A DNA stretch of 64,000 nucleotides from Candidatus Fimihabitans intestinipullorum (lineage in GTDB: Bacteria; Bacillota_I; Bacilli_A; RF39; UBA660). The notes below the pieces were generated by a model. The model searched no databases. It was not told the DNA's origin and worked only from the letters and a program-made list of their open reading frames with translations. The DNA lies in NCBI GenBank assembly GCA_018714965.1, contig DVML01000022.1:1065-65064 (forward strand), given 5' to 3'. Position numbers and translations under genes: made by a program. Below are positions 6,430 through 43,992 of the stretch, one piece after another (the first letter of the stretch is position 1; each line of letters begins with the position of its first letter).

Positions 6430-6453
6430 AAAAAGCAACTTAGTTGCTTTTTT
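6428..6453. terminator. Bidirectional rho-independent terminator between the amidase and the cwlJ 3' fragment
   Basis: AAAAAAAGCAAC tta GTTGCTTTTTT: stem flanked by an A-run and a T-run. Confidence 0.7.
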
Positions 6454-6697
6454 AATGAAGTTCTTGACATTCTCCTTTATCTGGCTGATAAAAACAATGG
6501 TTTTTATATCTTCCAGCTAGTGTTTGATCCCACCATGTAGATGTACAATTGGTTCCTCTAGCAGGTGCATAAAACCATAAAGCGTTGGTAGCTGGATGAT
6601 AGTATTCTCCTCTAATTACTCGATCTGCTAAAGCTCTTTCTGTCGATGTTGGATTACTGAAAAAAAGAGGGCTATCTACCCCGGAGAAGCCACCAGG
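6452..6697 (-). pseudogene. cwlJ: 3' fragment of a cwlJ-type cell wall hydrolase (Hydrolase_2 family), separated from its 5' part by the prophage
   Basis: The minus-strand frame reads PGGFSGVDSPLFFSNPTSTERALADRVIRGEYYHPATNALWFYAPARGTNCTSTWWDQTLAGRYKNHCFYQPDKGECQELH*. It has no start, and a stop (TAA) lies immediately upstream at 6698-6700. Confidence 0.8.
6690..6694. other. att core, left junction
   Basis: ccccggagaagCCACCaggttattccaagttggtac: host sequence to the left, phage sequence to the right. Confidence 0.6.
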
Positions 6698-6715
6698 TTA
6701 TTCCAAGTTGGTACA

Positions 6716-8083
6716 CTACATTAAAAAGTTAATCTCGAATTCATTTTTACCTTTAATCTCAATCGATTCTATAATACTTCCCCACAGTTCTCTTTTTTCT
6801 TGGTTGTTTAATTTATCATAAGTTTTGAAAATATCACTTGATAAAAATGTTTGAATCTTGTTTAAATTAGTTTTAGTTTTATCGATGCTCTTATATTTTT
6901 TATTTTCTTCTAATATTTTTTTCAGAGAACTATATTGTTCATTGTAGTAATCTATATCAATCATATCATTTAAATATAATTCACTCAATTTGTTCATTTT
7001 TCTTTTAACTGAATCTATATTTATCTTTTTTTCATTTTGATTAACTTCATCAATTTTTAGCTTTTTTTGTTCGAACTGAGTAAAAATATTTTTAATTACA
7101 AACTCTTCTATTCTTTTTTCTGGTACGTTATATTTATTAGAACAATAATTGCTTTCATTTGCTCGTTTGCAACGATAGTAATGCATATTGTTTTTGCTTG
7201 CATATCGCCCTGACATTTTTCTTCCGCATTGTCCACATTTGATTAGTCTAGAAAAAATATACGGATCGGTATTTTTGTGTTTGATTTCTTTGATATTGTT
7301 TTTAAATAGCTCTTGAACGCGATAAAACACGTCCTCGTCAACGATTTGTGGGCAGAAGTCCTCTAATATCTCTCCGGTAGATTTTCTCACATAGCGACCG
7401 ATATAAGCAGTATTTTTTAGATATATTTTAATAGAATCGTAACTCTTCTGTGAACAATTTTGTTGAAACCAACGAACAGTCTTTGATAGATTGTTAGTCA
7501 ATAAATATTGATCAAACAATCCTTGAATATGTGGAGCAGTTTCAGGATCTATGACAATTTTTTTATCGTCAGAAATTTTGTACCCGTAAGGTACTTTTCC
7601 ACTACATACTGTTTTTTGAACGCGAAACTTGTGATCAAATACAGATACGATACGTTCACCCGTTCTCTTTGCTTCCATTTGCCCTAGCGATAGTGACATG
7701 TTAAGCCAAAATTCTCCAGATGCAGTTGTAGTATCATAATCTTCCCAGATTGTTTTCCAGGCAACATTATTTTTCTTCAAAATTTCAATGACCTTATAGA
7801 AATCGGCAATATTCCTAAACCATCTATCTAACTTCGTCATTAAAATTAGATCTATATGTCCGGTTTCTAAGTCTTTTAACATTCGTTGAAGATTAGTTCG
7901 TTTTAATTTTTGGCCAGATTCTCCACCATCGATATAGGTACCATATATTTTATATTTATTTTTCTTTGCGTAATCAGTCAGAGCTTTCTCTTGCGCCTCT
8001 AAAGAATCCCCCTCTTTTGCCTGACGATCCGTTGAAACACGAATATAGAGCGCAACTGTTTTGATTCTGTCTTTTTGTGTCAT
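6716..8083 (-). CDS. Large serine recombinase (phage integrase)
   Basis: 455 aa; VALYIRVSTDRQ catalytic Ser motif, TKLDRWFRN, recombinase domain, zinc ribbon CGQCGRKM...YYRC, coiled-coil tail. The stop codon lies 21 nt from the att core. Confidence 0.9.
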   Translation of the reverse strand: MTQKDRIKTVALYIRVSTDRQAKEGDSLEAQEKALTDYAKKNKYKIYGTYIDGGESGQKLKRTNLQRMLKDLETGHIDLILMTKLDRWFRNIADFYKVIEILKKNNVAWKTIWEDYDTTTASGEFWLNMSLSLGQMEAKRTGERIVSVFDHKFRVQKTVCSGKVPYGYKISDDKKIVIDPETAPHIQGLFDQYLLTNNLSKTVRWFQQNCSQKSYDSIKIYLKNTAYIGRYVRKSTGEILEDFCPQIVDEDVFYRVQELFKNNIKEIKHKNTDPYIFSRLIKCGQCGRKMSGRYASKNNMHYYRCKRANESNYCSNKYNVPEKRIEEFVIKNIFTQFEQKKLKIDEVNQNEKKINIDSVKRKMNKLSELYLNDMIDIDYYNEQYSSLKKILEENKKYKSIDKTKTNLNKIQTFLSSDIFKTYDKLNNQEKRELWGSIIESIEIKGKNEFEINFLM

Positions 8084-8279
8084 TATATCACTTCCATTTT
8101 TTAATGCTTTATGATATAATTATATACGAAAAACTCATATATAATTATTATGTAATTGCTTGTACTAATGTTATATTGTTTTTCATTTCGTTACTGCGCC
8201 AACAGTAACGTTTTTTTGATTTTAATAGTATCAAAGTTTACTAATTAACATATAATAATGATGAAAGAGCCTAAGAATC

Positions 8280-9287
8280 CTACGCGGACTTAGGACTTTT
8301 AATTTCAACCCAATTATCAGGAAAATTCATAATTTTTAATATATCCTGAATATTTAGTGTATGTAAATGTTTTTCCAAACTTTTTATTCGTCCATATATT
8401 TTATTATACATGGTTATAAAATCATCGTGATCTAACAGATTTTTTAATGATATTATTAGTGCAAATAAATCATTTTTTCCTTGTATATACATTTCTCCTT
8501 GACGCTTAATATTTAATTTTTTATGGTAGATATTATCTTTTATATAAATGTATTTGGGAACTTTAGTATTGTAAACTCTTTCATCATGTGCACATAGATT
8601 TCTATAAAAATTCATAATTTTTATAAATTGCATTAGCTCATCTTCTCTACAATTTAAATGTTTGGCAACAAGATTTCTTTCTTTCTGATTCATTAATTCG
8701 AAAAATTTACTAACGTCTCCGAAGGAGAATATGTTAATTAAGACCCATAATGGAACAAATCCATATGTTAACATATAGTGTTTAATATATTCTTTAGTAG
8801 TTATAGATGTTGAGGTTTTTTGCTGGATAATTATAATTAACTCTTGAATATGTTTAATTTGATTTAATTTAATTTTTTCACTTACTTTTACTGAATTGAA
8901 ATTTTCAAAACAATCAATTTTTAAATAATTATCGTTCCCGTGATGCATTGAAAAATAGTAGGAAATTAAAGTTTTAAGGGTATTTTCAATTTTTAAAATA
9001 TATTTCAAAAAGATATCTCTTAATGCACGATCAAAATCATATAACGCAAAAATTTCATCAAAAGTTGTTCCGTCCATATAATTAGTCTCATCTTTTAAAA
9101 AGGGTTCTTTATATCCGTTTATTACGTTGTAATAGTTATTGGTCAATAATTTTTTCTTTGTGTCTTCTGTATCTGTAATTATTACACCTCTAGATCTTAG
9201 TAAATTTATTTGCTCATCTAATGTTTTAAATTGCTTCATAATATAATAAAAAGTCTTCGGTCCCATGGGATACCGAAGCTCATTCAC
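8280..9287 (-). CDS. Abi_2 family (AbiD/AbiF-like) abortive infection protein
   Basis: 335 aa; N-terminal FKTLDEQINLLRSRGVII...LLTNNYYNVINGY, typical of the Abi-like family; CAHDERVYN motif. Confidence 0.7.
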   Translation of the reverse strand: MNELRYPMGPKTFYYIMKQFKTLDEQINLLRSRGVIITDTEDTKKKLLTNNYYNVINGYKEPFLKDETNYMDGTTFDEIFALYDFDRALRDIFLKYILKIENTLKTLISYYFSMHHGNDNYLKIDCFENFNSVKVSEKIKLNQIKHIQELIIIIQQKTSTSITTKEYIKHYMLTYGFVPLWVLINIFSFGDVSKFFELMNQKERNLVAKHLNCREDELMQFIKIMNFYRNLCAHDERVYNTKVPKYIYIKDNIYHKKLNIKRQGEMYIQGKNDLFALIISLKNLLDHDDFITMYNKIYGRIKSLEKHLHTLNIQDILKIMNFPDNWVEIKSPKSA

Positions 9288-9293
9288 ATCAAC

Positions 9294-9590: not shown

Positions 9591-9944
9591 TTACTGTTTT
9601 CGTCCTTCAAAATTTTTTGAGGAAGCTATTTCTTGTTTGAGGAAAGATACATATCGATCAGCATCGTCCTCAAGAACATCTACTTTTAAAGCCAATAAAT
9701 CATTATTGATTTGATTTAATTGGCTCAGCTCAATATGAGCTAGTTCATGCAATATTGTTTTCTTTTTTAAGTAATACGATAAGTTTTTATTGATCATAAT
9801 GTTATGAATATCTTTATAAGAAAATACACATCCTCGAATATTACTAGGCAAAGATTCGTAAGTTATAGTTGCATTGTAATAATTTAATAGATCGGTTTCT
9901 GTTATATTTCCACATAATAAATTATATATATTCAAATTATACAC
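9591..9944 (-). CDS. ImmA/IrrE-family zinc metallopeptidase (anti-repressor protease)
   Basis: 117 aa; HELAHIEL (HExxH) motif; located immediately downstream of the XRE repressors, as in ImmR/ImmA modules. Confidence 0.7.
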   Translation of the reverse strand: MYNLNIYNLLCGNITETDLLNYYNATITYESLPSNIRGCVFSYKDIHNIMINKNLSYYLKKKTILHELAHIELSQLNQINNDLLALKVDVLEDDADRYVSFLKQEIASSKNFEGRKQ

Positions 9945-10040
9945 CCCTTATTGTTCAAATATTGTAAAGAATTAAAATATAAGATAAACAATTCAGATAT
10001 ATGATCCAAACTTTCCATTTGTTTCAACTGTTAGGATGTT

Positions 10041-10505
10041 TTATTTTACTTGCTTATCAATTTCATCCATTCTTTTTCCTATTAAAGATAAAATTGCTTT
10101 TTTTTGTTCTTCTGGTAATTCCATAAGAGCTTTATCAGTTTCGCTTGCATTTTTGAGAAATACTGTTGTGCCATCGGCTTTTTGTATATAGATTCCATCA
10201 TCATTATTTTCTATTTTTTCTTTTTGAATTTCATTTTTATATTTTGGAACATCAAATCCCATTAACCAAGCGGGATTTACGTTTAAGGCTTCTGATAGAA
10301 TAGTCAATTTCCATTGACCAGGTTCATATTTCCCAGAAATCCATTGACTTAAATCGGATTTAGTTATTTTTACTTTTTTTCCGTCCCTAAAATAATATTT
10401 ATTGCTGATAGGTTCACATTTTCTTATTATATCTGCTTGTTTTAAATTTCTTTCGTTCATTATTTTTTTGAGCCTTGTTGCAGTACTCTCTTTAATCATA
10501 ACCAA
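10041..10505 (-). CDS. XRE-family repressor 1 (HTH plus a shared C-terminal domain)
   Basis: 154 aa; HTH_3-like N-terminus ending AWLMG; C-terminal 55 aa almost identical to the neighbouring repressor. Confidence 0.7.
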   Translation of the reverse strand: MVMIKESTATRLKKIMNERNLKQADIIRKCEPISNKYYFRDGKKVKITKSDLSQWISGKYEPGQWKLTILSEALNVNPAWLMGFDVPKYKNEIQKEKIENNDDGIYIQKADGTTVFLKNASETDKALMELPEEQKKAILSLIGKRMDEIDKQVK

Positions 10506-10522
10506 TGTCCTCTCGATAACAT

Positions 10523-10918
10523 TTATTCATCTCCCAGCTGTTTGTCAATTTCATCCATTCTTTTCCCTATTAGGGATAGAATGGCTTTTTTTTGTTCTTC
10601 GGGTAATTCCATAAGAGCTTTATCAGTTTCGCTTGCATTTTTGAGAAATACTGTTGTGCCATCTGCTTTTTTAATATATATACCGTTATCATTATTTTCT
10701 ATAGTTTGAATTCGTAAATCCTTACTGAGTAAATCATTTAAGGGAACATTCAACATTTCTGCTAATTTTAATGCATTATCAATAGTAGTTTCGATTTCTC
10801 CATTTTCAATCCGCGAAATAGTAGATCTGTCAACTCCAATTTTATTTGCTAAATCTTGTTGCGAAATTTTTTTTACTTTTCGTAGATATTTAATGTTATT
10901 ATTTAAAAATTCAGCCAA
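10523..10918 (-). CDS. XRE-family repressor 2 (CI-like)
   Basis: 131 aa; canonical HTH SQQDLANKIGVDRSTISRIENG; divergent to the cro-like gene; RBS GGGAGGT. Confidence 0.8.
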   Translation of the reverse strand: MAEFLNNNIKYLRKVKKISQQDLANKIGVDRSTISRIENGEIETTIDNALKLAEMLNVPLNDLLSKDLRIQTIENNDNGIYIKKADGTTVFLKNASETDKALMELPEEQKKAILSLIGKRMDEIDKQLGDE

Positions 10919-10941
10919 AACAATTACCTCCCAGCACTTTA

Positions 10942-10951
10942 ATTATAACAT
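10942..10951 (-). promoter_or_regulatory. Extended -10 (aTGtTATAAT) for repressor 2
   Basis: The reverse complement of ATTATAACAT gives a TGnTATAAT-type extended -10, about 24 nt upstream of the start codon. Confidence 0.5.
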
Positions 10952-10999
10952 AAAAAAGCAAAAAAACAACACACGTTGTGAAAAAATGCACATTTATTG

Positions 11000-11028
11000 T
11001 TGACAAGTGCATATATGCACGATATAAT
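11000..11028 (+). promoter_or_regulatory. Early rightward promoter with an embedded operator palindrome
   Basis: TTGACA (11000-11005), 17 nt, TATAAT (11023-11028). The spacer holds the perfect palindrome GTGCATATATGCAC (11007-11020), and an additional TGCAC half-site lies at 10987-10991. Confidence 0.75.
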
Positions 11029-11051
11029 AAGTGTAGATAGGAGGTAACATA

Positions 11052-11282
11052 ATGCTGGAAGCAATAGGAAAAGAACTGAAAATTATTAGAATTAGAAATA
11101 ATTTAAAATTAGAAGATGTTGCTAAAGATATTAAATTAAATAGAGAAACTCTTCGTAGATATGAAAATTCAGCTAGTGGACTATCAGTTGAAAGATTAGA
11201 GAATTTATTAAATTATTATGGCGTAGACAGTTCAATTTTTTTTGAAAGAATATGTGAATATATGCACACAAATCGAAGGTAA
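11052..11282 (+). CDS. XRE-family HTH protein (Cro-like)
   Basis: 76 aa; HTH LKLEDVAKDIKLNRETLRRYEN; RBS TAGGAGGT. Confidence 0.7.
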   Translation: MLEAIGKELKIIRIRNNLKLEDVAKDIKLNRETLRRYENSASGLSVERLENLLNYYGVDSSIFFERICEYMHTNRR

Positions 11283-11286
11283 AGAA

Positions 11287-11481
11287 ATGATATCAAAATA
11301 TTTAAAACAATATTTTAAAAATCGAAATATTAGTCAATATGAAGTTTCAAAACGAACGAAAATAGATAGAACAAAAATCAATCTATCGTTCAATAATAAA
11401 CGAAAACTTACAGCAGATGAACTTATTTTGATTGCAAATGTATTTGAAATAGATTTAAACAAAATAAAAAAGATTAAATAA
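11287..11481 (+). CDS. XRE-family HTH protein
   Basis: Start trimmed to the ATG at 11287 (MISKYLKQYFKNRNISQYEVSKRTKIDRTKIN...); the longer track ORF overlaps the previous gene. Confidence 0.6.
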   Translation: MISKYLKQYFKNRNISQYEVSKRTKIDRTKINLSFNNKRKLTADELILIANVFEIDLNKIKKIK

Positions 11482-12836: not shown

Positions 12837-12909
12837 TTTAAACACCTCGCTTTCTATTGAAATTATAACATGGCAAAAGATAAAAAAATAAAGAGAAGGA
12901 GGATAGAAA

Positions 12910-13059
12910 ATGAAAGAAATATTAAAAAGTAAAATGATGATTTTATTCACAGTATTTATTTTGGGGATTGCACTAGTGGATGGACTTCAAGCACAAAAAA
13001 AAGACTTGAATGGAGCTGGAACTCAAATTTCAAGTCAATCAAATTATTTACAAAAATAA
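12910..13059 (+). CDS. Small signal-peptide-bearing ORF, copy A (49 aa)
   Basis: RBS GAAGGAGG; MKEILKSKMMILFTVFILGIALVDGLQAQKKDLNGAGTQISSQSNYLQK: n-region, h-region, LQA, then a hydrophilic tail. Paralogue at 13829. Confidence 0.5.
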   Translation: MKEILKSKMMILFTVFILGIALVDGLQAQKKDLNGAGTQISSQSNYLQK

Positions 13060-13703: not shown

Positions 13704-13832
13704 ATGAAAAAAACAAGGATGTTATATGAATCTTTACCATTAGGTATAAATAGTATCTCCTATAAAAATGGAGATGAAATGATATATGTAATCAATACAA
13801 ATAAAAATTTATTAGTGGAGGAAATAAAATGA
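13704..13832 (+). CDS. Hypothetical 42-aa ORF, translationally coupled to peptide copy B
   Basis: RBS GAGGAGGG; the stop overlaps the next start (ATGA). Confidence 0.35.
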   Translation: MKKTRMLYESLPLGINSISYKNGDEMIYVINTNKNLLVEEIK

Positions 13833-13975
13833 AGGAAATATTAAAAAGTAAAATGATGATTTTATTCACAGTATTTATTTTGGGAATTGTTTTAGTAGAT
13901 GGATTTCAAGCACAAAAAAAAGACTTGAACGGAGTTGGATCTCAAATTTCAAGTCAAATTATTTCAAAAAAATAA
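13829..13975 (+). CDS. Small signal-peptide-bearing ORF, copy B (48 aa)
   Basis: MKEILKSKMMILFTVFILGIVLVDGFQAQKKDLNGVGSQISSQIISKK. About 90 percent nucleotide identity to copy A by eye, except at the C-terminal codons. Confidence 0.5.
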   Translation: MKEILKSKMMILFTVFILGIVLVDGFQAQKKDLNGVGSQISSQIISKK

Positions 13976-14986: not shown

Positions 14987-14987
14987 A

Positions 14988-15509: not shown

Positions 15510-15510
15510 G

Positions 15511-15828: not shown

Positions 15829-15829
15829 A

Positions 15830-16892: not shown

Positions 16893-16896
16893 TTAG

Positions 16897-17783: not shown

Positions 17784-17784
17784 A

Positions 17785-18135: not shown

Positions 18136-18137
18136 AT

Positions 18138-18637: not shown

Positions 18638-18639
18638 AT

Positions 18640-34400: not shown

Positions 34401-37400
34401 AAAGGAGATCGAGATGTTGAAGAAAATTTGGAAAGCTCTAAAAAGACTATACGATTACATCAGATGGGTGGAATAGAGGAACTAGATAATAGTTCTTTTT
34501 CTTTTGATAAAAATAAAACAAGATCATTATCTAATACTGATAATCAAGGAAGAAAATTATCAAAAGGACAACAAGAATTTTTCAAAGACAGTAAAGTAAG
34601 AGATAATAATGGAAATTTAATTACATATTATAATGGTTCTGACAATTTTAATGTTTATGATAAGAATAAGTTAAGCAACAACAGTAAATGGGGTAAAGGA
34701 ATTTATCTTACAAAATATAAAGATATAGCAAGTATGTATGGTAATAATATCAAAGAATTATATGTTAATATTAAAAATCCTATAAGTAGTACGAAAAAAA
34801 CAATTTCTTTTGAAGAATATAATGAATTGTATAAAAAAATAAATGATGGAGAAAGTGGATACATAGAAGAATATAGTATGTATGATAATGATTTAGATTT
34901 ACTATGGGATATGACAAATAGTGGGAATTGGGCTGATTATGCTAAGGAAATAAGAGAAATTACTGGAAAAGATGGACTTATAATAAATGATGATAACAAA
35001 GCAGAAGATATGGTTATTGCCTTTGAGAGTAATCAATTAAAAAGTGTAGATAATCTTAACCCAACAAATACCGAAGATATAAGATATTCACAAAACAGTA
35101 ATAAATGGCAAGGATTCGTAGATCAAAATTTCCAAACCGAAGGAACAGGACATACATTGTCACAGCTAAAAACAAATAAAGTATTGAATCCAACTGAAAT
35201 TGCTAGTTTGACTAGAGAAGATGCTGGTACGACTCCAAATCTCCCAGACGTAAAAGTACCAAAGGGAGATAAAAAATCTAAGTTTACTAAAAACATATCA
35301 GAAAAAACGAAGATGTTAACTGAAGAAAATAGAAAAAAACTATCTCAAGAAAAAGATGTAGCTTTCTATAAAGGAATTACTAATAAACAAAGCCTAGAAG
35401 AAGCTTATGATAGATTAAATGATGGTGGAAGTGGCGAAACATTAAATTGGATATCACGAAATAGCTATGATAAGGATGGGAAATTAAAGAAAAAACCAAC
35501 AGCTACAGATGTGGCAGAAGGATGGATCTTACTAAAGCAATATCAAGATGCTGGTGATTATGATTCAATGGTACAAGTTGCCAAAGTTATGAGACAAATG
35601 GGTACGGAGTCTGGACAAGCAATACAAGCATATAACATTATGTCAAGATTAACACCTGAGGGAATGGTTAAATATGCACAGAGTGAATTGGGCGAAGCCT
35701 ATGATCGTATGGTGAAAAATAAAACGAAAAAGTGGATTGAGAAAAATCGAGATAAATTTACACTTACACCTGACGAAACAGCATATATTGTGAACAACAT
35801 AAAAGAGGCATCCGAATTACCTGATGGATACGAGAAAAAAGTTAAATTAGCGCAGATTCAAAGCCTAATTTCTAATAAATTACCACCTGCTCGTGGAGCT
35901 GGTATTAAAGCATGGATGCGAATTTCTATGCTTTTTAATTTGAAGACACAAATTAGAAATATAATGGGAAATGCAGTAATCACCCCAGTAAATGCTATAG
36001 GTGATACATTTTCGGCGCTTATGGATAAACAAATTGCTAAGAAGACAGGAGTTAGAACAACGGGGGCTCCTAATGTGAAGAATTTTGCAAAAGGATTTAA
36101 AAAAGGTCTTTATGAAAGTTGGAATGATTTTAAACTGGATATTAACACTAGGGATATGCAAGGAAATAGATTTGAAATTGGAGAAGGTAAGTCTTTTACT
36201 GATCAAACAAAAGTAGGAAGAGCATTAAATAGAACTGATAAAATATTAAGTTTCATGCTAGATGCTGGAGATAGGCCGTTTTATGAAGGAACATTTATAA
36301 ATTCAATCAATAATCAGAAAATTCTCAATAACACAAACAAAGTCACTCAAGATATGATTGATATTGCAACTACAGAGGCCCTACAGAGAACGTGGCAAGA
36401 TAACAATGCATATACAAAGTTTGTATTAAATACTAGAAGAGGATTGAATTTCGGAATGAAATATGGATTAGGTGATGCTCTCATCCCTTTTGCTAAGACA
36501 CCTGCCAACTTAACTAAAGCGCTTATAGATTATTCTCCTGCGGGTTTAGTTACCACGTTAATAGAAGGTAAAAAACTTAAAAATGCAATTGAAACGAATC
36601 AGTTTACTCCACAGATGCAACATAAGTTTGTTCAAAATTTAGGAAAAGCGACAGCTGGAAGTCTCCTCTATATTCTTGGGTATATACTTGCAAAAGAGGG
36701 AATAACTACAGGTGCAAACGATGAAGATAAAGATGTTTCTGATTTTATGAGAAATACATTAGGTATTCAACCATATTCAATTAAAATAGGGAATAAAACG
36801 TTTACTTACGATTGGGCTCAGCCTGTTGCAACTCCATTTGCTATGATGGCAGATTTGCAAAAGAAAGATGAAGAGGCAGGAATATTGAATAAGGTTCTTA
36901 GTACTGCTGATGTCGGAGCAAATTTACTCTTACAACAATCCTTTATGGAAAGTATCGAAAATGTATTTTCTGATTATCAAAGTATTCCAAACGGAATAAT
37001 ACAACAGGTATTAGATCTTCCTTCTCGAGCAGTACCTACTCTTGTAAAACAGGTTAATGACATGATAGATACTACTCAAAGAACATCGTTTGAAAAAGGT
37101 GATAATTTAAAAACTGCTAAAAACAGAGTTAAGAGCAAAATCCCAGGAATGAGTACTGACTTAGCACCATCACGTGATAGTTTAGGAAGAGTAATAAAAA
37201 AATATGGTGGAGATGCCAATCTTTTTAACGTGTTTTTAAATCCGGCGAACACTAACAAAGGAAAAGTTAGCGATAGTGCAAAAGAAATATATAAGATATA
37301 TCAAAAAACTGGAGATAAAACAATTATGCCAAGAGTTGCTCCGTATTCTATTGTATCTGGTGGAAAATCCAAAACTTTAGACTCTAAAGAAAGAAGCGAA

Positions 37401-37661
37401 TTTCAAAAAATTAGTGGTCAGATTGTTGAAAAAAATATAAAAGAACTAGCTAAAACTGATGAATACAGGAAAATGGATGATTCTTACAAAACAGAGGCAA
37501 TTAAATCAATTGTTGATTATGCTTATAACTATGCTAAAGCAAAATCCTTAAAACAACCAATTTCAAAAAATTATAAAAAAGCTTACGAATATACTAAAAA
37601 CGGTGGAACTTTGTATGACTTTTACGCAGATAAAATTTATAAAAAAAGTAAAGAAAAGTAG
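31482..37661 (+). CDS. 2059-aa multidomain polyvalent virion protein (two HExxH metallopeptidase-like motifs and an ART-PolyVal-like region)
   Basis: GTG start. Gly-rich hydrophobic segment at about 32320-32480. HELYH at 33342-33356 and HEIQH at 34158-34172. Region about 34560-34800 (FFKDSKVRDNNGNLITYYNGS...WGKGIYLTKY...LYVNIKNP) resembles the ADP-ribosyltransferase-like domain of phage polyvalent proteins. Confidence 0.65.
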   Translation: MKKIDLSKYRKAQNVRIIDDDEENIMPIDYSKYKKANLSQEAIDIINDYDQHNNKNKIKTTVNVVNNKPNEDGYTDTGKKLGDYDYYDYKNRGQYKIYSKDGNYYYYDEKNKSYNTVNEQRMTTKEEDRKQYEEAVKLGFKGNKSKLSLNDQLKLDTSNLTKDEYKEYEKDLERQENKRAKDSEIRYGGPGLKGSLGEIKQGIKNIGENLIDPIARTPENIKIGQLNEKLGREAYKKMEGKKNNYDEVKRQVDNYTKFNQDIVTSENLIDQNTQNMPNQISAFLSGVKGGGIGGVVGGLAGATIGTVATGNPSGTATGAVQGAKLLGGAGYVGGQAKYTYELESGYQYQALLDLGVPEDIAKEEARKVGTTNALIESGESLLDLVTLGKASQVRQMLTDGLVKKYGLETVKDWTKGAATSYVTNVASEGIEEGLQEYSSIQGEKRATKKAGIERDDSQDFERIKDSTIAGSFGALLSGAVTRPTGVFTNRYVNSKIGGSANNNIQNSSLTERSIQNTANALNLGNLNTNNLSVVNNSTDGKTTTNNFVESARTYNIDISNNTIKNIDKTLSNRGIVSRFDASEFTNNNENAFWKVNSDGTREVVFNPKAKTNDLLENVAVHELYHDISKSEDGQKIKDELLDFAKTKEGYEEARKSLEQLYSNKYDPNSDQFKTLVDEEAVASILGKKLGNQEFVNSLTVEKPSVAKSVYNWVVDKLNKLNKLTGYKSEKLFWKDVKSKFDSAYRSNVDFDVDSRFMITGYKAAKQLDKNFKTKEFSENYKEAIKMEKHGALKDKIRKETGWYKDVNGDWKFEISDKSSELKISPKAFTDYKLKELLDHNILYKAYPFLKNTNVKFSKLPETTRGKTDKLTGNIYINNNLIGNDSQIERTLLHEIQHKVQRKEKFQGGTTQYRENSYERYRNNFGETEARETSQRKKLNFEERLATPSYTQTYNKQSKKKLYTKEDTKWYNYLKGDRDVEENLESSKKTIRLHQMGGIEELDNSSFSFDKNKTRSLSNTDNQGRKLSKGQQEFFKDSKVRDNNGNLITYYNGSDNFNVYDKNKLSNNSKWGKGIYLTKYKDIASMYGNNIKELYVNIKNPISSTKKTISFEEYNELYKKINDGESGYIEEYSMYDNDLDLLWDMTNSGNWADYAKEIREITGKDGLIINDDNKAEDMVIAFESNQLKSVDNLNPTNTEDIRYSQNSNKWQGFVDQNFQTEGTGHTLSQLKTNKVLNPTEIASLTREDAGTTPNLPDVKVPKGDKKSKFTKNISEKTKMLTEENRKKLSQEKDVAFYKGITNKQSLEEAYDRLNDGGSGETLNWISRNSYDKDGKLKKKPTATDVAEGWILLKQYQDAGDYDSMVQVAKVMRQMGTESGQAIQAYNIMSRLTPEGMVKYAQSELGEAYDRMVKNKTKKWIEKNRDKFTLTPDETAYIVNNIKEASELPDGYEKKVKLAQIQSLISNKLPPARGAGIKAWMRISMLFNLKTQIRNIMGNAVITPVNAIGDTFSALMDKQIAKKTGVRTTGAPNVKNFAKGFKKGLYESWNDFKLDINTRDMQGNRFEIGEGKSFTDQTKVGRALNRTDKILSFMLDAGDRPFYEGTFINSINNQKILNNTNKVTQDMIDIATTEALQRTWQDNNAYTKFVLNTRRGLNFGMKYGLGDALIPFAKTPANLTKALIDYSPAGLVTTLIEGKKLKNAIETNQFTPQMQHKFVQNLGKATAGSLLYILGYILAKEGITTGANDEDKDVSDFMRNTLGIQPYSIKIGNKTFTYDWAQPVATPFAMMADLQKKDEEAGILNKVLSTADVGANLLLQQSFMESIENVFSDYQSIPNGIIQQVLDLPSRAVPTLVKQVNDMIDTTQRTSFEKGDNLKTAKNRVKSKIPGMSTDLAPSRDSLGRVIKKYGGDANLFNVFLNPANTNKGKVSDSAKEIYKIYQKTGDKTIMPRVAPYSIVSGGKSKTLDSKERSEFQKISGQIVEKNIKELAKTDEYRKMDDSYKTEAIKSIVDYAYNYAKAKSLKQPISKNYKKAYEYTKNGGTLYDFYADKIYKKSKEK

Positions 37662-37668
37662 GTGAAAT

Positions 37669-38022
37669 ATGATATATATAGAGAAAAGTACAATGAATTT
37701 AGAACTCGTGATCGGAGACACGGGTTCTTTTTCTTTAAAACCTAAAATTAACAAGGAAACATATTTATCAGAAGGAGATAAAATCTATTTTACTGTCAAA
37801 AAAAAGAAAACTGGAGATGTTGTGTTAAATAAGGAAATCACAGAATTTCGCAATGGAATCGTTGATATTATTATAGAGCCAAAAGATACGCTTGATCTTG
37901 AACCGGGAAATTATATATATGATATTAAATCAGTTCGAAAAGACGGAACCGTCGATACGTTAATTCCGAATAATCCGTCTGCTAGTTTGACGTTGAAAAG
38001 AGGTGTTAAATCATGGAAATAG
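37669..38022 (+). CDS. Small tail-associated protein (Ig-like/BppU_N-like?)
   Basis: 117 aa; overlaps the fibre gene start. Confidence 0.35.
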   Translation: MIYIEKSTMNLELVIGDTGSFSLKPKINKETYLSEGDKIYFTVKKKKTGDVVLNKEITEFRNGIVDIIIEPKDTLDLEPGNYIYDIKSVRKDGTVDTLIPNNPSASLTLKRGVKSWK

Positions 38023-39596
38023 AAACTCCGATAATAGAAATTGAACTTCCTGGAGGAACAAGAGGATTACAAGGTGTTCCTGGACCAAAGGGAGAAACTG
38101 GAGAGCCAGGGCCTAAAGGAGAAACTGGAGAGCCAGGACCAGGAAATTTTTTAACGATAGGTTCTGTTACGTCTGGCACTGTCGCATCGGCAACAATCAC
38201 GGGAGAAAGCCCTACACAAGTTTTAAATTTGATTTTGCCAAAAGGAGAAAAGGGAGAAACTGGAGAGCCAGGGCCTAAAGGAGAAACTGGAGAGCCAGGT
38301 ATACAGGGAATTCCAGGAATGCCGGGAGAACAAGGGTATTCAATTGCTAAAGTTGAAAAAAAATCAGGGACAGGGGCGCCTGGAACAGCAGATATATACG
38401 GTTGTTACTTAAACGATCAAACGGGTACTGAAGTGGGGGAGTTTAGTGTATTTAATGGGATGAATGGAATAGCAGGAGCAGATGGAATTGATGTGACAAG
38501 TGCAACAACTGGGACACCAATACAAAGTGATGAGTATACAGTAACACCAATCACGTTTAATAAAAGCGATAATACGGCTGTGACAGTTAACGTACAAGCT
38601 AAAAATGGTATCAATGGAGAGGGAGTTCCAGACGGTGGAACTACTGGACAAGTATTGGCGAAAGCAAGTGATACTGACGGCGACGTTGAATGGGTAAATC
38701 AAACCGGAGGCACTACCGATTATGATTCCGCTCCAGTAGGATCAATATTCGGTTATCCTAGTTTAACTCCACCAACGGGGTATATGATATGCGATGGAAG
38801 CGAATTGAGTCGTACTGAATATGCATCATTATTCGCAGTTATTGGAACATCATATGGAGTGGGTGATGGCTCAACAACATTCAACATTCCAAATATCAAA
38901 GGTCGAATGATTGTTGGGCATAATATTGGCGATAGCGATTTCAACACTTTAGGGAATACTGGAGGAAGCAAGACCCATACACAAACAGTTTCGGAAATGG
39001 CTCGACATACACACGTCTTGAAAAAAGGCGGAGCCGTTGGTGGAGACGGTAGTGGGTTAGCTTATTCAGGGACTACGGCTTCAAATAATGCTGGGGTTGA
39101 ACCGGCAGGAGAAGGCGAACCAATGGATATCATGAATCCATATATCGTTGCTTGTTATATTATTAAAGTTTCGGGAACAGCTATTTTGAACGGAAATGTA
39201 GTTGATGATTTGAATGAAAACTCAACGACTAATTCTCCAAGTCAAAACGCAGTAAATCAAGGATTGTTATCAATAAATAATTTTATTGGAGATTTATTCA
39301 AGTTTCAAACTTTGTCCGTACCAATTGAAATTGCTGGAAGTGGACACGCATCGTTCCAAATGGGGTGGCTTGATACAACTGATGGGTATTCTTATTTAGG
39401 AATTCTTTCAAAAGAAAGCGGATATGGAGATCAATGGCAAATAACATATTCATTGTATCAAGGTAATAAAATTTTTGCTGTTGTGAGAAATAACTATAGT
39501 CAAACTTTAAGCAATACAATAACTTGTACCGTAGTATATATAAAATCAGACTATCTAACGGATGCAATCGTAGGTGATGAAAATGGAACAGAATAA
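38013..39596 (+). CDS. Tail fibre with collagen-like repeats and a phage tail-collar domain
   Basis: Gly-X-Y tracts GLQGVPGPKGETGEPGPKGETGEPGPG and GEKGETGEPGPKGETGEPGIQGIPGMPGEQG; collar motif GYMICDGSELSRTEYASLFAVIGTSYGVGDGSTTFNIPNIKGR. Confidence 0.8.
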   Translation: MEIETPIIEIELPGGTRGLQGVPGPKGETGEPGPKGETGEPGPGNFLTIGSVTSGTVASATITGESPTQVLNLILPKGEKGETGEPGPKGETGEPGIQGIPGMPGEQGYSIAKVEKKSGTGAPGTADIYGCYLNDQTGTEVGEFSVFNGMNGIAGADGIDVTSATTGTPIQSDEYTVTPITFNKSDNTAVTVNVQAKNGINGEGVPDGGTTGQVLAKASDTDGDVEWVNQTGGTTDYDSAPVGSIFGYPSLTPPTGYMICDGSELSRTEYASLFAVIGTSYGVGDGSTTFNIPNIKGRMIVGHNIGDSDFNTLGNTGGSKTHTQTVSEMARHTHVLKKGGAVGGDGSGLAYSGTTASNNAGVEPAGEGEPMDIMNPYIVACYIIKVSGTAILNGNVVDDLNENSTTNSPSQNAVNQGLLSINNFIGDLFKFQTLSVPIEIAGSGHASFQMGWLDTTDGYSYLGILSKESGYGDQWQITYSLYQGNKIFAVVRNNYSQTLSNTITCTVVYIKSDYLTDAIVGDENGTE

Positions 39597-39972: not shown

Positions 39973-40173
39973 ATGAAAAATAAAACTTATGATATTTTAA
40001 AATGGATTGCACAAATTGTTTTGCCGGCAATCGCAACATTTTATGTAACAGTGGCAAGTTTGTGGAATTTGCCATTTCCTGAGGAAATTTCAGGAACAAT
40101 TATGGCAGTAGATACTTTATTAGGAGCAGTCTTAATGATTTCTAGTGCTAATTATAAAAAGGAGAGTGAGTAG
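39973..40173 (+). CDS. Holin (Dp-1-type)
   Basis: MKNKTYDILKWIAQIVLPAIATFYVTVASLWNLPFPEEISGTIMAVDTLLG matches the Dp-1 holin family pattern. Confidence 0.65.
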   Translation: MKNKTYDILKWIAQIVLPAIATFYVTVASLWNLPFPEEISGTIMAVDTLLGAVLMISSANYKKESE

Positions 40174-40175
40174 AT

Positions 40176-41045
40176 ATGAAATATAGACAAATGTTGGTTG
40201 ATGAATCAAAATGGAATATTAAGTGTCCGTATAAAATGGAACCGGAATATATTACAGTTCATAACACCGCAAATGATGCATCAGCTGAGAACGAAGTTAA
40301 ATATATGATTTCAAATAATAACGAAGTATCATTTCATTATGCCGTTGACGACAAAGAGGCGGTGCAAGGAATTCTAACAGACAGGAATACTTGGAATGCA
40401 GGCGACGGAGCAAACGGAACTGGTAATAGAAAATCTATTGCGGTTGAAATTTGTTATTCTAAATCAGGTGGGGATCGTTTTATTCGAGCTGAAAAGAACG
40501 CAGCAATTGTTGTTGCAGATCTTTTAAAAGGATGGGATTTAGGGCTTGACAGAGTTCGTAAACATCAAGATTGGAATGGAAAATATTGTCCGCATCGTAC
40601 ACTCGACATGGGCTGGGAAAGATTCATGGATATGGTTAAATTAGCGTATAACGGTTCAAATTCGAATGAAAACGGTTCATCCAATACAAATACACCAACA
40701 GTACAAAAAAACATTGAACAAGTGGCGTATGACGTTATTAACGGTAAATATGGAAACAATCCTGAACGTCGTCAAAAATTAGAAGCAGAAGGATATGACT
40801 ATAATAAAGTGCAGACAAAAGTCAATGAAATTCTGGATGGACAAAACAGTATGACCAAAAAATTGGCAGTTGGGAGTAAAGTAAAAATCAATTCAAGTGC
40901 TTCTACATATGCGACGGGAGAGAAAATTCCAAATATTTACAAAAATAAAACTTATACCGTTCAGCAACTTCATAAAAACGGTGATAAAGTTTTAATAAAA
41001 GAGCTTTATTCTTGGGTTTTCATTAAAGATATTACAGTCTTATAA
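40176..41045 (+). CDS. Endolysin: N-acetylmuramoyl-L-alanine amidase (Amidase_2/PGRP) with a CW_7 repeat and an SH3-like C-terminus
   Basis: ITVHNTAN, SFHYAVDD, SIAVEICY, HQDWNGKYCPHR; CW_7-like VAYDVINGKYGNNPERRQKLEAEGYDYNKVQTKVNEIL. Confidence 0.85.
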   Translation: MKYRQMLVDESKWNIKCPYKMEPEYITVHNTANDASAENEVKYMISNNNEVSFHYAVDDKEAVQGILTDRNTWNAGDGANGTGNRKSIAVEICYSKSGGDRFIRAEKNAAIVVADLLKGWDLGLDRVRKHQDWNGKYCPHRTLDMGWERFMDMVKLAYNGSNSNENGSSNTNTPTVQKNIEQVAYDVINGKYGNNPERRQKLEAEGYDYNKVQTKVNEILDGQNSMTKKLAVGSKVKINSSASTYATGEKIPNIYKNKTYTVQQLHKNGDKVLIKELYSWVFIKDITVL

Positions 41046-41157: not shown

Positions 41158-41628
41158 TTATTTACTGAAATTTGTTTCATCACAAATAAGTTTTAATTCA
41201 TCTAACTCAAATGCGTTATTTTGGACAGTTTCATCAGAAAATTCGCAAGCGTCATATTGGAATAATCCTTTAAAATCACTATAAATTTCATTATCTTTTT
41301 TGTCGGTTTTTAATTTAATAGAATTATAAAACTTCTCCGCCTCATTTTTGTTGTCAAAAACTTTTGATTTTTTTGTGTCTTTTAAGATTTCTATAAACCC
41401 TTGATCGTTAAAATGTTGAGTCACTTTCACAACCAAAAATTTTCTCATATAAATTCCTCTCTCTAAAATTTTTTTGGCTTCTAAAACCAACTCTCTTTTA
41501 TTCATATTGTTTTTTGCTAAAAATTCGTTAATTTGATCTAATTCTTCGGGTTTTAATTTTGCTTTGAATTGTTTGTAATTATCTTTGTCGAACTGATTTT
41601 TGTATTCTCTTAATTCTTTTTTATTCAT
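41158..41628 (-). CDS. RHH-like N-terminal domain protein (156 aa), accessory cassette 1
   Basis: N-terminal REYKNQFDKDNYKQFKAKLKPEELDQINEFLAKNNMNKRELVLEAKKILE is paralogous to the 41874 ORF and fits a strand-helix-helix pattern; no Shine-Dalgarno. Confidence 0.45.
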   Translation of the reverse strand: MNKKELREYKNQFDKDNYKQFKAKLKPEELDQINEFLAKNNMNKRELVLEAKKILERGIYMRKFLVVKVTQHFNDQGFIEILKDTKKSKVFDNKNEAEKFYNSIKLKTDKKDNEIYSDFKGLFQYDACEFSDETVQNNAFELDELKLICDETNFSK

Positions 41629-41637
41629 ATATTAAAA

Positions 41638-41665
41638 TTGACAATTTCTATAATTATGATAAAAT
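41638..41665 (+). promoter_or_regulatory. Antisense promoter, cassette 1
   Basis: TTGACA-16 nt-TAAAAT with a TGn extended -10; fires towards the small ORF on the opposite strand. Confidence 0.55.
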
Positions 41666-41671
41666 AATTAG

Positions 41672-41709
41672 TGAGAAGGGGGTTAACCCCATCTCGTAAT
41701 CACTTTTTT
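41672..41709 (+). ncRNA. Predicted short antisense RNA, cassette 1
   Basis: Predicted start about 7 nt after the -10. GTGAgaagGGGGttaaCCCCatctcgtaaTCAC followed by T6. Complementary to the 3' end of the 31-codon ORF. A second possible terminator lies near 41745-41755. Confidence 0.35.
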
Positions 41710-41778
41710 GGTTTTCTTTCCACAGACTTGAAATCCAAGAGTGATTTTTATTTTCCATATTTTTATAGAAATTTCCAT
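41683..41778 (-). CDS. 31-aa basic peptide, cassette 1
   Basis: RBS GGTGGG 7 nt before the ATG; MEISIKIWKIKITLGFQVCGKKTKKVITRWG; paralogue at 42111. Confidence 0.4.
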   Translation of the reverse strand: MEISIKIWKIKITLGFQVCGKKTKKVITRWG

Positions 41779-41821
41779 CTTTAATCCCACCTTTCTAGTA
41801 ATCTTTCTTGATTACATACTA

Positions 41822-41850
41822 ATTATATCATATCGTGTACACGATATCAA
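41822..41850 (-). promoter_or_regulatory. Sense promoter of cassette 1 with an operator palindrome
   Basis: Minus strand TTGATA-17 nt-TATAAT; the spacer holds ATATCGTGTACACGATAT. Confidence 0.6.
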
Positions 41851-41873
41851 CTGTTTTTATGGAGATAGGAGTT

Positions 41874-42059
41874 TTATTTTTTATATTTTTCTTTTAATAT
41901 TTTATATGCTTCACGAATAAATTGAGTATTGTTCATATTGATTTGATCCAAAAATGAATCTATTTCTTCTTTTTCTTCTACCGGAAGTTTTGCGGTGAAT
42001 TGCCTGTAATTTATCTTCTTGTATTCACGAATATATTTCTTTTGATCAAACTTTTCCAT
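41874..42059 (-). CDS. RHH-like protein (61 aa), accessory cassette 2
   Basis: MEKFDQKKYIREYKKINYRQFTAKLPVEEKEEIDSFLDQINMNNTQFIREAYKILKEKYKK. Start chosen by analogy to cassette 1 (the track ORF extends to 42077); no Shine-Dalgarno. Confidence 0.45.
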   Translation of the reverse strand: MEKFDQKKYIREYKKINYRQFTAKLPVEEKEEIDSFLDQINMNNTQFIREAYKILKEKYKK

Positions 42060-42063
42060 AATT

Positions 42064-42092
42064 TTGACAATCATCAATAAATTGGTTATAAT
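42064..42092 (+). promoter_or_regulatory. Antisense promoter, cassette 2
   Basis: Perfect TTGACA-17 nt-TATAAT. Confidence 0.6.
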
Positions 42093-42098
42093 GGTAAT

Positions 42099-42191
42099 AG
42101 AAGGAGTGGCTTATCGCCAACTCTTTCTGATTACTTTAGTAGTTTTAGTAGATTTTCTTTCTCGTAGAATTGCTAAAACTACTTTTATTTT
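42099..42191 (+). ncRNA. Predicted antisense RNA (about 90 nt), cassette 2
   Basis: Ends in an 11-bp perfect stem, AGTAGTTTTAG (42138) with CTAAAACTACT (42173), followed by TTTATTTT. Complementary to most of the 34-codon ORF. Confidence 0.4.
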
Positions 42192-42215
42192 ACCAATTTT
42201 TATTGATAATTCCAT
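42111..42215 (-). CDS. 34-aa basic peptide, cassette 2
   Basis: RBS GAGAGGTG 6 nt before the ATG; MELSIKIGKIKVVLAILRERKSTKTTKVIRKSWR. Confidence 0.4.
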   Translation of the reverse strand: MELSIKIGKIKVVLAILRERKSTKTTKVIRKSWR

Positions 42216-42239
42216 GTCTTCACCTCTCTTTCTATATAC

Positions 42240-42268
42240 ATTATATCACATGGTGTAGACCATGTCAA
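42240..42268 (-). promoter_or_regulatory. Sense promoter of cassette 2 with an operator palindrome
   Basis: Minus strand, perfect TTGACA-17 nt-TATAAT; the spacer holds CATGGTctacACCATG. Confidence 0.6.
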
Positions 42269-42482
42269 GAGATTTGTTCATTTTTCTTTAAATTTGTAAA
42301 ATTTATGTTAAAATAATTGAGGTTACTTTTTTGGTATCCTTATTCTTTTATTCTCATCATAAAACTCGCAAAGATTATATTGAAATAATTTTTTATATAA
42401 CTATAAATTTAATTTTTAATAAATAGATATTATGTATAAATACAAGTTAACATAATTAAAATTATATATAACATATAATAAT

Positions 42483-42510
42483 TTGACATATATTAAAAAA
42501 AATGTATAAT
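42483..42510 (+). promoter_or_regulatory. Consensus promoter inside an ORF-free region that is visibly very AT-rich
   Basis: TTGACA-16 nt-TATAAT; reads towards and antisense to the 51-aa peptide gene. Confidence 0.5.
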
Positions 42511-42516
42511 ATTTCT

Positions 42517-42754
42517 CATATTATATAATTTGTTTACATTTATCAATTAAAAGTTGTTGCAAAAATAATATATAAATTATATAATAATATTGAATGATTA
42601 ACATATATTATCATTTATTATCATTTCACTTTAGTATATTATAGTTATTTTTAACTATAATAAAAAAGAGATACACCCAATATAGCCTGTTAGGTGTCAT
42701 CTCCACAATTTGTGGTAGGCACCATAACTCTTAGTTGAGTTAGGTGTCTTTTTT
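42517..42754 (+). ncRNA. Predicted antisense/non-coding transcript overlapping the 3' end of the 51-aa ORF
   Basis: No plausible ORF. Plus-strand hairpin GGCACC...GGTGTC followed by T6 at 42718-42754, which would terminate it inside the peptide gene. Confidence 0.3.
42662..42703 (-). terminator. Terminator of the 51-aa peptide gene
   Basis: Minus strand GAGATGACACC, 14-nt loop, GGGTGTATCTC followed by T6; overlaps the stop codon. Confidence 0.65.
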
Positions 42755-42852
42755 GTCATTAGTTGTTTAAAAACTTTTCTAGTAATGCCAAGATTACTAT
42801 CAAAGCTACTAAAAACTCCATTGGTCTCCTTATATATAATAAGTTGATTCAT
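42697..42852 (-). CDS. 51-aa hydrophilic peptide of unknown function
   Basis: Very strong RBS AAGGAGGTG 6 nt before the ATG; MNQLIIYKETNGVFSSFDSNLGITRKVFKQLMTKKTPNSTKSYGAYHKLWR; own promoter and terminator. Confidence 0.5.
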   Translation of the reverse strand: MNQLIIYKETNGVFSSFDSNLGITRKVFKQLMTKKTPNSTKSYGAYHKLWR

Positions 42853-42932
42853 GTGGACCACCTCCTTACATATCTTGATTGAAAAGTTATGTGGAGGCAA
42901 CACCTAACTATCGGATGTATCTCATAACTAGA

Positions 42933-42977
42933 ATTATATAATTTTTTTCGACAATAATCAATATATGTGATCCACAT
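42933..42977 (-). promoter_or_regulatory. Promoter plus upstream palindrome of the 51-aa peptide gene
   Basis: Minus strand TTGATT-17 nt-TATAAT (42961 to 42933); palindrome ATGTGgatCACAT at 42965-42977. Confidence 0.55.
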
Positions 42978-43011
42978 TTTGCAAAAAAATAGAGTGATAT
43001 AAAGCACCGTG

Positions 43012-43707
43012 CTATAAGCTAACCGGTATATCGAGTTCTTTTCCGTTATTTAAAACAATCTTCCCCTTTGATTTCATTTTGATGTACTTTCTGTTTATGA
43101 TTAACGATCTACCATATGGCTCAAAATTACTATTTAATTGTTTATTTATATCCTTTATCGATTGATAGATTGGTGCTTTTCCATGAGCGATATGTACTGA
43201 GCAATATTTTTGATTCTTTTCTTTTTCTATATATAATATTTCATCCAATTGTAATGTATATGTAATCCCTTTCGATTTGAATTGTAATACACTATTTTCT
43301 TGAATAATATTTAACGCTTTTGAGAGAGAACGATATAGGTTCTCTTTTAATCTGTCGAACTTGTCAATATACGTTAAGCACATAATATCATCTCCGATAA
43401 TAGTGCTTTTATACTCTTCGTGGCCAGTCAAAAAAATGATTATGCTGTTGTAGTCATAATCACGTATATCGCGTGCGAGATCTATTCCAGAATCATATCC
43501 AACATGAATATCCAAAAGGAATATTTTTCTTTTATTATTTTTTATTAAATCGTATATCTTGGAGTTAACTGATGTGAATTTATATATTTTATAATCAATA
43601 TCATTATGCATCATGTATTTATCAATAAGATCACACTCTTTGTTTAAAAAATATAGTTCATCTTCCACTACAACTAACTCAACAACCGATGAGCTTATAT
43701 TTTCCAT
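43012..43707 (-). CDS. Orphan LytTR-family response regulator (receiver plus LytTR DNA-binding domain)
   Basis: 231 aa. Receiver motifs VVVEDE, FLLDIHV (phospho-acceptor Asp), IIFLTGH, YIDK. C-terminal LytTR pattern LDEILYIEKEKNQKYCSVHIA...FEPYGRSLIINRKYI. Confidence 0.75.
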   Translation of the reverse strand: MENISSSVVELVVVEDELYFLNKECDLIDKYMMHNDIDYKIYKFTSVNSKIYDLIKNNKRKIFLLDIHVGYDSGIDLARDIRDYDYNSIIIFLTGHEEYKSTIIGDDIMCLTYIDKFDRLKENLYRSLSKALNIIQENSVLQFKSKGITYTLQLDEILYIEKEKNQKYCSVHIAHGKAPIYQSIKDINKQLNSNFEPYGRSLIINRKYIKMKSKGKIVLNNGKELDIPVSL

Positions 43708-43729
43708 TATTTTCCAACTCCCTATTTAC

Positions 43730-43766
43730 ATTATAACATTTTGGAGTTTGGTTTTCCACTGGAAAA
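43730..43766 (-). promoter_or_regulatory. Extended -10 (aTGtTATAAT) and operator palindrome upstream of the LytTR gene
   Basis: ATTATAACAT at 43730-43739; TTTTCCAcTGGAAAA at 43752-43766. Confidence 0.5.
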
Positions 43767-43800
43767 AATTCCCAATTTATAAGTGTACTAATTAAGAATA

Positions 43801-43992
43801 TCCACCGGGATTTTGATAAGCGACTTCGGATATCGTACGAACGTTTTTAAATGTTAAGCAATTAGAAATGCCTCTATTTACAACGACGTTACCAACCATT
43901 AGCATACCAAGATCGCCTTCACCCACTGCTTCTGCACGCATTAATCTCGCGAGTAAATCGCGTTCTTTGCTAGTTGCTTTTATAATTGCCAC
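43801..43992 (-). pseudogene. cwlJ: 5' fragment of the cwlJ-type cell wall hydrolase
   Basis: GTG at 43992, 6 nt after AGGTG. (M)AIIKATSKERDLLARLMRAEAVGEGDLGMLMVGNVVVNRGISNCLTFKNVRTISEVAYQNPGG, then the phage-derived YS* (stop at 43792). Collinear with the N-terminus of B. subtilis CwlJ as I recall it. Confidence 0.8.
43802..43806. other. att core, right junction
   Basis: gtactaattaagaatatCCACCgggattttgataagc: phage sequence to the left, host sequence to the right. Confidence 0.6.

Follow-up and report, generated by a model that had tools for sequence, protein, structure and literature searches.

The interruption of mother-cell sporulation genes by prophages is established for sigK, spsM, spoVFB, spoVR, gerE, and yabG. 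In Bacillus subtilis, the complete, inducible temperate phage SPbeta lies within the coding sequence of the spore-envelope gene spsM, and its precise excision by a large serine integrase (the SprA/SprB system) rebuilds the open reading frame (ORF) (PMC4191935, PMC5499854). The skin element (in sigK of B. subtilis and C. difficile) and the vfbin (spoVFB), vrin (spoVR), gin (gerE), and yin (yabG) elements are also serine-recombinase elements that interrupt mother-cell sporulation genes; most are defective or non-phage, and they are often fixed in a lineage. The Listeria prophages A118 and phi10403S reside in the comK ORF and also carry serine integrases; their excision restores the gene without necessarily producing phage (active lysogeny), and it is triggered by the phagosome environment, not by development, and has no connection with spore biology. 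Here we describe a related locus in a 64,000-nucleotide stretch of contig DVML01000022.1 (the window) from an RF39-order gut bacterium (Candidatus Fimihabitans-like), in which a 37,112-bp prophage splits a gene for a CwlJ-type germination cortex hydrolase.

This locus resembles SPbeta in that a complete temperate phage with a large serine integrase sits inside a coding sequence that precise excision rebuilds, and it resembles intervening elements generally in that the insertion lies in the ORF of a sporulation/germination gene, the element encodes its own serine recombinase, and a precise join restores the ORF. It differs from SPbeta in several respects. The target of SPbeta is a polysaccharide synthesis gene, whereas the gene split here encodes a germination cortex hydrolase; above the family level the integrases share no relationship, the virion genes suggest another kind of phage, neither an SprB-like factor nor a sigmaE/sigmaK promoter was identified in the prophage, and the host is an uncultured RF39 bacterium. 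The likeness is one of structure, and sporulation-specific excision is a known trait of SPbeta. Unlike skin, vfbin, vrin, gin, and yin, the element described here is a full phage that is carried by a minority of strains and has a free attP form. In the literature searched, cwlJ is nowhere reported to be the target of a prophage or intervening element, and we regard it as a new target gene: the target list of a 2023 paper consists of sigK, spsM, spoVFB, gerE, and yabG and does not contain cwlJ, spoVR is listed as a target in PMC4191935, and a preprint abstract mentions spoVK.

The split cwlJ gene and its attachment sites

The 5' fragment of cwlJ (codons 1–64; 43802–43992, minus strand) begins with a GTG start at 43992 and ends in AYQNPGG. 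Past the GG, the truncated ORF reads two phage codons (YS) and stops at 43792, giving a 66-aa product (ending NPGGYS) that is present in exact form on at least 21 contigs from many samples. The 3' fragment (codons 62–142 and the stop codon; 6452–6697, minus strand) reads PGGFSGV...QELH, with an in-frame TAA directly upstream. Re-reading the minus strand returned the same coordinates and translations for both fragments as the initial annotation. The split point lies after codon 62–64 (Pro-Gly-Gly), and Pro62-Gly63-Gly64-Phe65 is invariant in a 23-sequence alignment. The exact core common to the two junctions is GGTGG (CCACC on the plus strand; 6690–6694 and 43802–43806), and it grows to 8 bp (CC[T/C]GGTGG) if one mismatch is allowed. 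The prophage of about 37.1 kb that had been proposed to lie inside the gene measures 37,112 bp from core to core (6695–43806, including one core copy), and joining the fragments at the core produces, as predicted, an uninterrupted ORF of 429 nt that encodes 142 aa. Integration cuts a single Hydrolase_2 catalytic domain in two, and lysogens would be unable to make CwlJ while the prophage is integrated.

The assignment of the joined protein to the CwlJ type, which the initial annotation had drawn from motifs and from collinearity with B. subtilis CwlJ, was borne out by its end-to-end match to the Pfam Hydrolase_2 profile (positions 1–100 of 100, E=1.4e-16; 61 bits against a cut-off of 27) and by alignment of residues 11–129 with the SleB catalytic-domain structures 4F55 and 4FET. 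The protein consists of a single domain, and the listed homologues have similar lengths (140–151 aa). The SleB equivalog TIGR02869 scored 47 bits (cut-off 236.5) and covered the joined protein with the profile's C-terminal domain only; the N-terminal peptidoglycan-binding domain of SleB is absent. In the 4F55 alignment, the RAEAVGEG motif is paired with the GESRGE motif of SleB, and its residues E21, G24, E25, and G26 are invariant across 23 homologues; from what is known of SleB, we take this motif to contain the catalytic glutamate. The gene has 4,962 homologues, and about half of the columns in the 23-sequence alignment are invariant. Downstream, cwlJ is followed by a convergent amidase gene. 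The gene for the CwlJ partner GerQ has been reported to be mostly or entirely missing from RF39 genomes (PMC10868615).

The uninterrupted allele proposed as a check in related genomes was found on contig L017, where it is identical to the in silico join at 429 of 429 nt, an agreement well outside what chance could give; the exact joined protein is also present in a public protein collection. A 21-kb contig (L015) is syntenic with the window on both sides of an empty site, with breakpoints at exactly 43802 and 6697 and an 8-bp overlap, and a 159-kb scaffold (L001) carries an intact, 94% identical cwlJ with the same neighbours as in the window: a 243/244-aa protein on one side and an Amidase_3/LysM gene on the other, followed by a P-type ATPase and a CotZ gene. 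The prophage is polymorphic, and intact alleles are far commoner (on 65, 51, 11, 9, and further numbers of contigs) than the split form (on at least 21 contigs).

A natural attP was found on contig BRZ_BQ NODE_1150 (37,603 bp, with 34x coverage according to the contig's own name), in which CCCGGTGG connects the last 72 nt of the int region with the phage's LytTR end. Relative to the window, this contig is 100% identical on the phage-right side and has one mismatch on the left. We reached it by looking up the LytTR protein; an exact-pattern search for attP in IMG/VR and the JGI metagenomes gave no match, and the pattern used had a CCT wobble where the natural attP has CCC. In the window, attR (43780–43830, minus strand) consists of the host left arm, the core GGTGG at 43802–43806, and a phage right arm with ATATTCTTAATTAGTACAC, and attL (6666–6718, minus strand) consists of the phage left arm GTGTACCAACTTGGAATAACCT, the core at 6690–6694, and the host right arm. 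All four att forms (attB, attP, attL, and attR) thus exist in natural samples, and precise reversal of integration rebuilds cwlJ. Both halves of the gene are free of inactivating mutations in every lysogen that we saw.

The attP rebuilt from the phage arms is an imperfect palindrome of about 50 bp (15 of 22 positions symmetric) that is centred on the first GG of GGTGG and begins at the integrase's own stop codon. In other lysogens, the attR wobble base before the GG shifts with single-nucleotide polymorphisms in the host flank (CCC or CCA), and the attL base is derived from the phage (CCT). This pattern puts the crossover to the right of the Pro62 wobble base, inside GG(TGG), and the centre of the attP palindrome indicates the first GG. 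Another contig, L042, begins exactly at the core, which would fit a branch in an assembly graph and proves nothing.

The integrase and the recurrence of its target

The integrase gene (6716–8083, minus strand) encodes a 455-aa large serine integrase with Resolvase (PF00239, E=3e-31), Recombinase (PF07508), and Zn_ribbon_recom (PF13408) domains and the catalytic motif YIRVSTDRQ. Its stop codon lies 21 nt from GGTGG, as first noted, and 18 nt from the 8-bp core, and family searches of the element's proteins agreed that it is the sole site-specific recombinase inside the element. The nearest integrases among GenBank phages are those of Enterococcus phiFL1-3 and Clostridioides phiCD27 (37–38% identity over the full length), which are too distant to share attachment sites and whose targets are not cwlJ; the integrase of U153, which is related to those of the Listeria comK prophages, is a distant match (28.5%). 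An Abi_2 abortive-infection-like gene (8280–9287, minus strand) has a sigma-70 promoter upstream that matches the consensus at 12 of 12 positions (9322–9294) and that probably drives int too. Family searches recognised no recombination directionality factor in the prophage; such factors lack conserved sequence and synteny (PMC12286644).

The same site in cwlJ is occupied by a sister prophage with a 94.5% identical integrase (L002, L009, L019, and L023), and a metagenome-assembled genome (MAG) labelled "uncultured Tenericutes" has a 95% identical integrase beside the same cwlJ fragment. A scan of IMG/VR with the CwlJ alignment yielded four further contigs, in which a 70–74% identical cwlJ is cut at the same residues. 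One of these contigs contains both halves of cwlJ, about 39 kb apart; its integrase is 40% identical to that of the window prophage and lies beside the 5' fragment in the opposite orientation, and its junctions share the core TGG, in which the GG is again that of the Gly63 codon. The site has thus been used in at least three further host species and by two integrase lineages, which identifies cwlJ as a recurrent attB.

Two more distant sister integrases (L003, 56% identical, and L007, 53%) sit in a gene whose translation we interpret as a ZIP-type zinc transporter, at its HN(F/I)PEGL motif. The core at the zinc-transporter site is CCTGAAGG, and the same core occurs in the attP of L005/L012; other members of this 53–57% integrase clade have an intact palindromic attP directly after the int stop codon. 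The use of a zinc-transporter gene indicates that the clade picks short conserved coding motifs (CCTG-R-W-GG) and not sporulation genes as such; cwlJ offers one of these motifs, and at least two lineages use it. The differing but similar cores of the related integrases (CCTGGTGG, CCTGGAGG, and CCTGAAGG) form a natural series of shifted core specificity, and the complete set of attB, attP, attL, and attR provides, together with the integrase family, material for specificity tests.

Host, promoter motif, and gene content

Among the annotated proteins of the Candidatus Fimihabitans intestinipullorum MAG at NCBI is a 54-aa C-terminal fragment of CwlJ; the genus has been placed in the GTDB order RF39, family CAG-822 (PMC8035907). 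The suggestion that the host is a spore-former gains support from genome-based predictions of spore formation in RF39 (PMC10868615) and from the CotY/Z-like gene at 49279–49728, which proved to be CotZ-like (PF10612, E=1.2e-14). The window also holds several LysM/amidase genes. We know of no cultured member of RF39.

Four nucleotides upstream of the cwlJ ribosome-binding site is a sigmaK/sigmaE-type −10-like motif, CATATAATA (44008–44016, minus strand). CATAnnnTA is the −10 consensus of B. subtilis sigmaK and is close to that of sigmaE, and B. subtilis cwlJ is a sigmaE-dependent gene expressed in the mother cell. The nine cwlJ upstream regions compared, which come from five host lineages and are otherwise unrelated, all have the motif at −20 to −24 relative to the start codon; it has no clear −35 element and is unusually close to the ribosome-binding site. 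CATAnnnTA also lies 0–8 nt before the ribosome-binding site of six host genes in the window (at 5193, 44016 on the minus strand, 44064, 48016, 48886, and 56625), namely amiA, cwlJ, and the genes for a 243-aa lipoprotein, a VCA0040-like protein, a 113-aa protein beside cotZ, and a 365-aa AAA ATPase. These genes may mark a mother-cell gene cluster in the RF39 genome with an unusually short leader. In comparison with these six flanking host genes, none of the approximately 54 prophage ORFs shows the arrangement of motif and ribosome-binding site (Fisher p=0.007); the prophage contains 34 CATAnnnTA motifs, about the number expected by chance, and none is beside a ribosome-binding site and start codon. 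The initial annotation had raised the possibility of a sigmaE/sigmaK-type promoter before a small candidate directionality factor, and our scan of the prophage found none. Two CATACAnT matches (8363, minus strand, and 14102, plus strand) were rejected as chance-level occurrences that lack a credible −35 element.

The functional modules of a phage are all present with intact ORFs. A lysogeny switch (9591–11481) comprises an ImmA-like peptidase (9591–9944, minus strand), two helix-turn-helix (HTH) repressor-like genes (10041–10918, minus strand), and divergent Cro-like HTH genes (11052–11481, plus strand). It is followed on the plus strand by a replication/recombination module (14220–19253; replication initiator, Erf, exonuclease, NinB, HNH, RusA-like resolvase, and SSB), a packaging/virion module (21174–39596; TerS, TerL, portal, major head protein, tail proteins, an LPD23-domain protein, and tail fibre), and a lysis cassette (39973–41045; holin and amidase endolysin). 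With its packaging, head, tail, lysis, replication, and lysogeny modules and its excised attP form, the element is a complete temperate phage. In the virion module, no protein could be assigned to a tape-measure or tail-tube family. TerL is nearest to those of the Bacillus megaterium phages Page, Pony, and Pookie (47% identity), and the prophage has no DNA match among 50,697 GenBank phage records. The LPD23-domain protein of the virion module (31482–37661, plus strand) is 2059 aa long and has no PHROG match; its only recognisable domain is this "large polyvalent protein" domain.

The module next to attR (41158–43707, minus strand) is co-directional with cwlJ and contains a LytTR regulator gene (43012–43707), a 68-aa ORF, and genes for two paralogous small proteins. 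The LytTR protein is 96.5% conserved in the sister prophage (L023), and an ORF that reads as LytTR-like follows attR in a third host (L024). The two small proteins (41158–41628 and 41874–42077, minus strand), which are encoded between the lysis cassette and the LytTR gene, look ribbon-helix-helix-like on reading and have no family match; they are missing from two variant prophages (L029 and L030) that keep the LytTR gene beside attR. In the early region, a 165-nt direct repeat (12874–13038 and 13793–13957; 86% identity, 919 nt apart) duplicates an ORF of 48–49 aa (12910–13059 and 13829–13975, plus strand) with a signal-peptide-like N-terminus (MKEILKSKMMILFTVFILGI...). The duplicated small ORFs and the LytTR response-regulator-like protein could together constitute a phage peptide-signalling system.

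Other mobile elements lie in the host flanks. A second, unrelated large serine recombinase (4–1590; 528 aa including a DUF4368 tail) stops 35 nt short of a 5'-truncated gene with Amidase_3 and four LysM domains, the two together occupying 4–2800 on the plus strand; this recombinase element extends past the left end of the window. Homology of the truncated amidase to its intact paralogue (5218–6429), which also has the CATAnnnTA motif, begins at a conserved AHGG motif (residue 14). In L001 (10452–13256), a 531-aa recombinase element interrupts the orthologue of the intact amidase at this residue too, and in L015 (5452–8168) a 561-aa recombinase element interrupts it at residue 74. The amidase genes cut in the window, L001, and L015 thus represent a second recurrent serine-recombinase target, adjoining cwlJ. 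An IS3-family insertion sequence (3972–5092, plus strand; an 88-aa orfA and a 235-aa orfB that has an rve domain) separates an LD-carboxypeptidase gene from amiA; the syntenic loci L001 and L015 lack it.

Lysogeny and sporulation

A split gene could in principle be mimicked by a decaying, defective prophage or by an assembly chimera, and the metagenome-type assembly of an uncultured organism and the parts of the virion module that lack a family match would be in keeping with this. We consider it extremely improbable: identical junctions turn up in at least 21 contigs, which derive from independent samples and assemblers, every functional module is there with its ORFs unbroken, a genome-length contig has the attP form at 34x coverage (a figure taken from its name), and the empty site equals the join base for base. 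The truncated 66-aa product on so many contigs excludes an assembly error and, together with the identical empty site and the natural attP, rules out both artefact and remnant. We favour, at roughly even confidence, the interpretation that the element is an active temperate phage with an ordinary lysogenic life at a conserved intragenic cwlJ site, for which the data require no sporulation programme. The large serine integrase recombines attP with the part of cwlJ specifying the invariant Pro62-Gly63-Gly64. It would be made constitutively from the consensus promoter before abi2-int, so that excision would be gated by a putative directionality factor, and the phage would leave through an induction circuit of the ImmA/repressor type. 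The lysogen would tolerate losing CwlJ, since cwlJ is not expressed during growth and another cortex hydrolase probably takes over its role; CwlJ of B. subtilis is redundant with SleB. Neither a replacement Hydrolase_2 gene in the prophage nor a nearby paralogue was found within the window. Several considerations tell against ordinary lysogeny. No second cortex hydrolase (SleB) was found within the window, and the very strong conservation of cwlJ argues for a cost of losing it. In several host species, the same GG of cwlJ serves two integrase lineages with just 40% identity between them. Moreover, skin, SPbeta, vfbin, vrin, and gin are excised during sporulation or in a growth-phase-dependent manner (PMC4191935, PMC5595907), and the excised form of yin was detected at all time points (PMC10747680); as all tested elements in mother-cell genes are excised, the base rate favours programmed excision.

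The alternative that these points suggest is an SPbeta-type developmental switch, which we regard as a serious candidate that falls somewhat short of an even chance. A directionality factor expressed in the mother cell would enable the integrase to excise the element, cwlJ would be rebuilt and expressed from a mother-cell promoter, and CwlJ would be put on the spore, so that the spores of a lysogen would be germination-competent and still carry the prophage. The structural prerequisites are in place (an in-frame split, a serine integrase at the junction, and natural attB and attP), the CATAnnnTA motif of cwlJ keeps a constant spacing to the start codon across five independent host lineages, and the site recurs in at least three further host species and with two integrase lineages. 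The high conservation of cwlJ, the intactness of both of its halves in every lysogen seen, and the precedents in sigK, spsM, spoVFB, spoVR, gerE, and yabG also fit a switch, as does the apparently constitutive expression of int, which has been reported for SprA (PMC4191935). The timing of excision in sporulation would, however, be carried over by analogy, the host-type sporulation promoter precedes none of the prophage ORFs, and no directionality factor is recognisable by sequence, although such factors are not conserved in sequence (PMC12286644). Sister integrases target a zinc-transporter gene, which is not a sporulation gene. The element is a full, active, and polymorphic phage and is neither fixed nor decayed, which counts against a switch; the intact cwlJ halves may merely reflect recent integration. 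A further idea, which we think unlikely, is that the orientation of integration wires the phage into sporulation, with the mother-cell cwlJ promoter reading through attR into the LytTR module and triggering excision or another phage programme in the mother cell only. It draws on the retention of the module beside attR in the sister prophage and on the LytTR-like ORF after attR in another host species. A search of the minus strand from the cwlJ 5' fragment to the LytTR gene revealed nothing that resembles a terminator, so the cwlJ promoter might be read through into the module. If it occurs, germination competence in RF39 would be gated by a phage family, and reads across the attB and attP junctions would be an in situ marker of sporulation in an uncultured lineage.

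Beyond adding a single case, the locus provides a recurrent site and a host in RF39, an uncultured, genome-reduced gut order in which sporulation is only predicted. If excision of the prophage is developmental, phages would control the spore germination of transmissible gut bacteria. If the ordinary lysogeny that we favour is correct and excision is not developmental, lysogeny would create spores that lack CwlJ, a phage-imposed change in germination behaviour.

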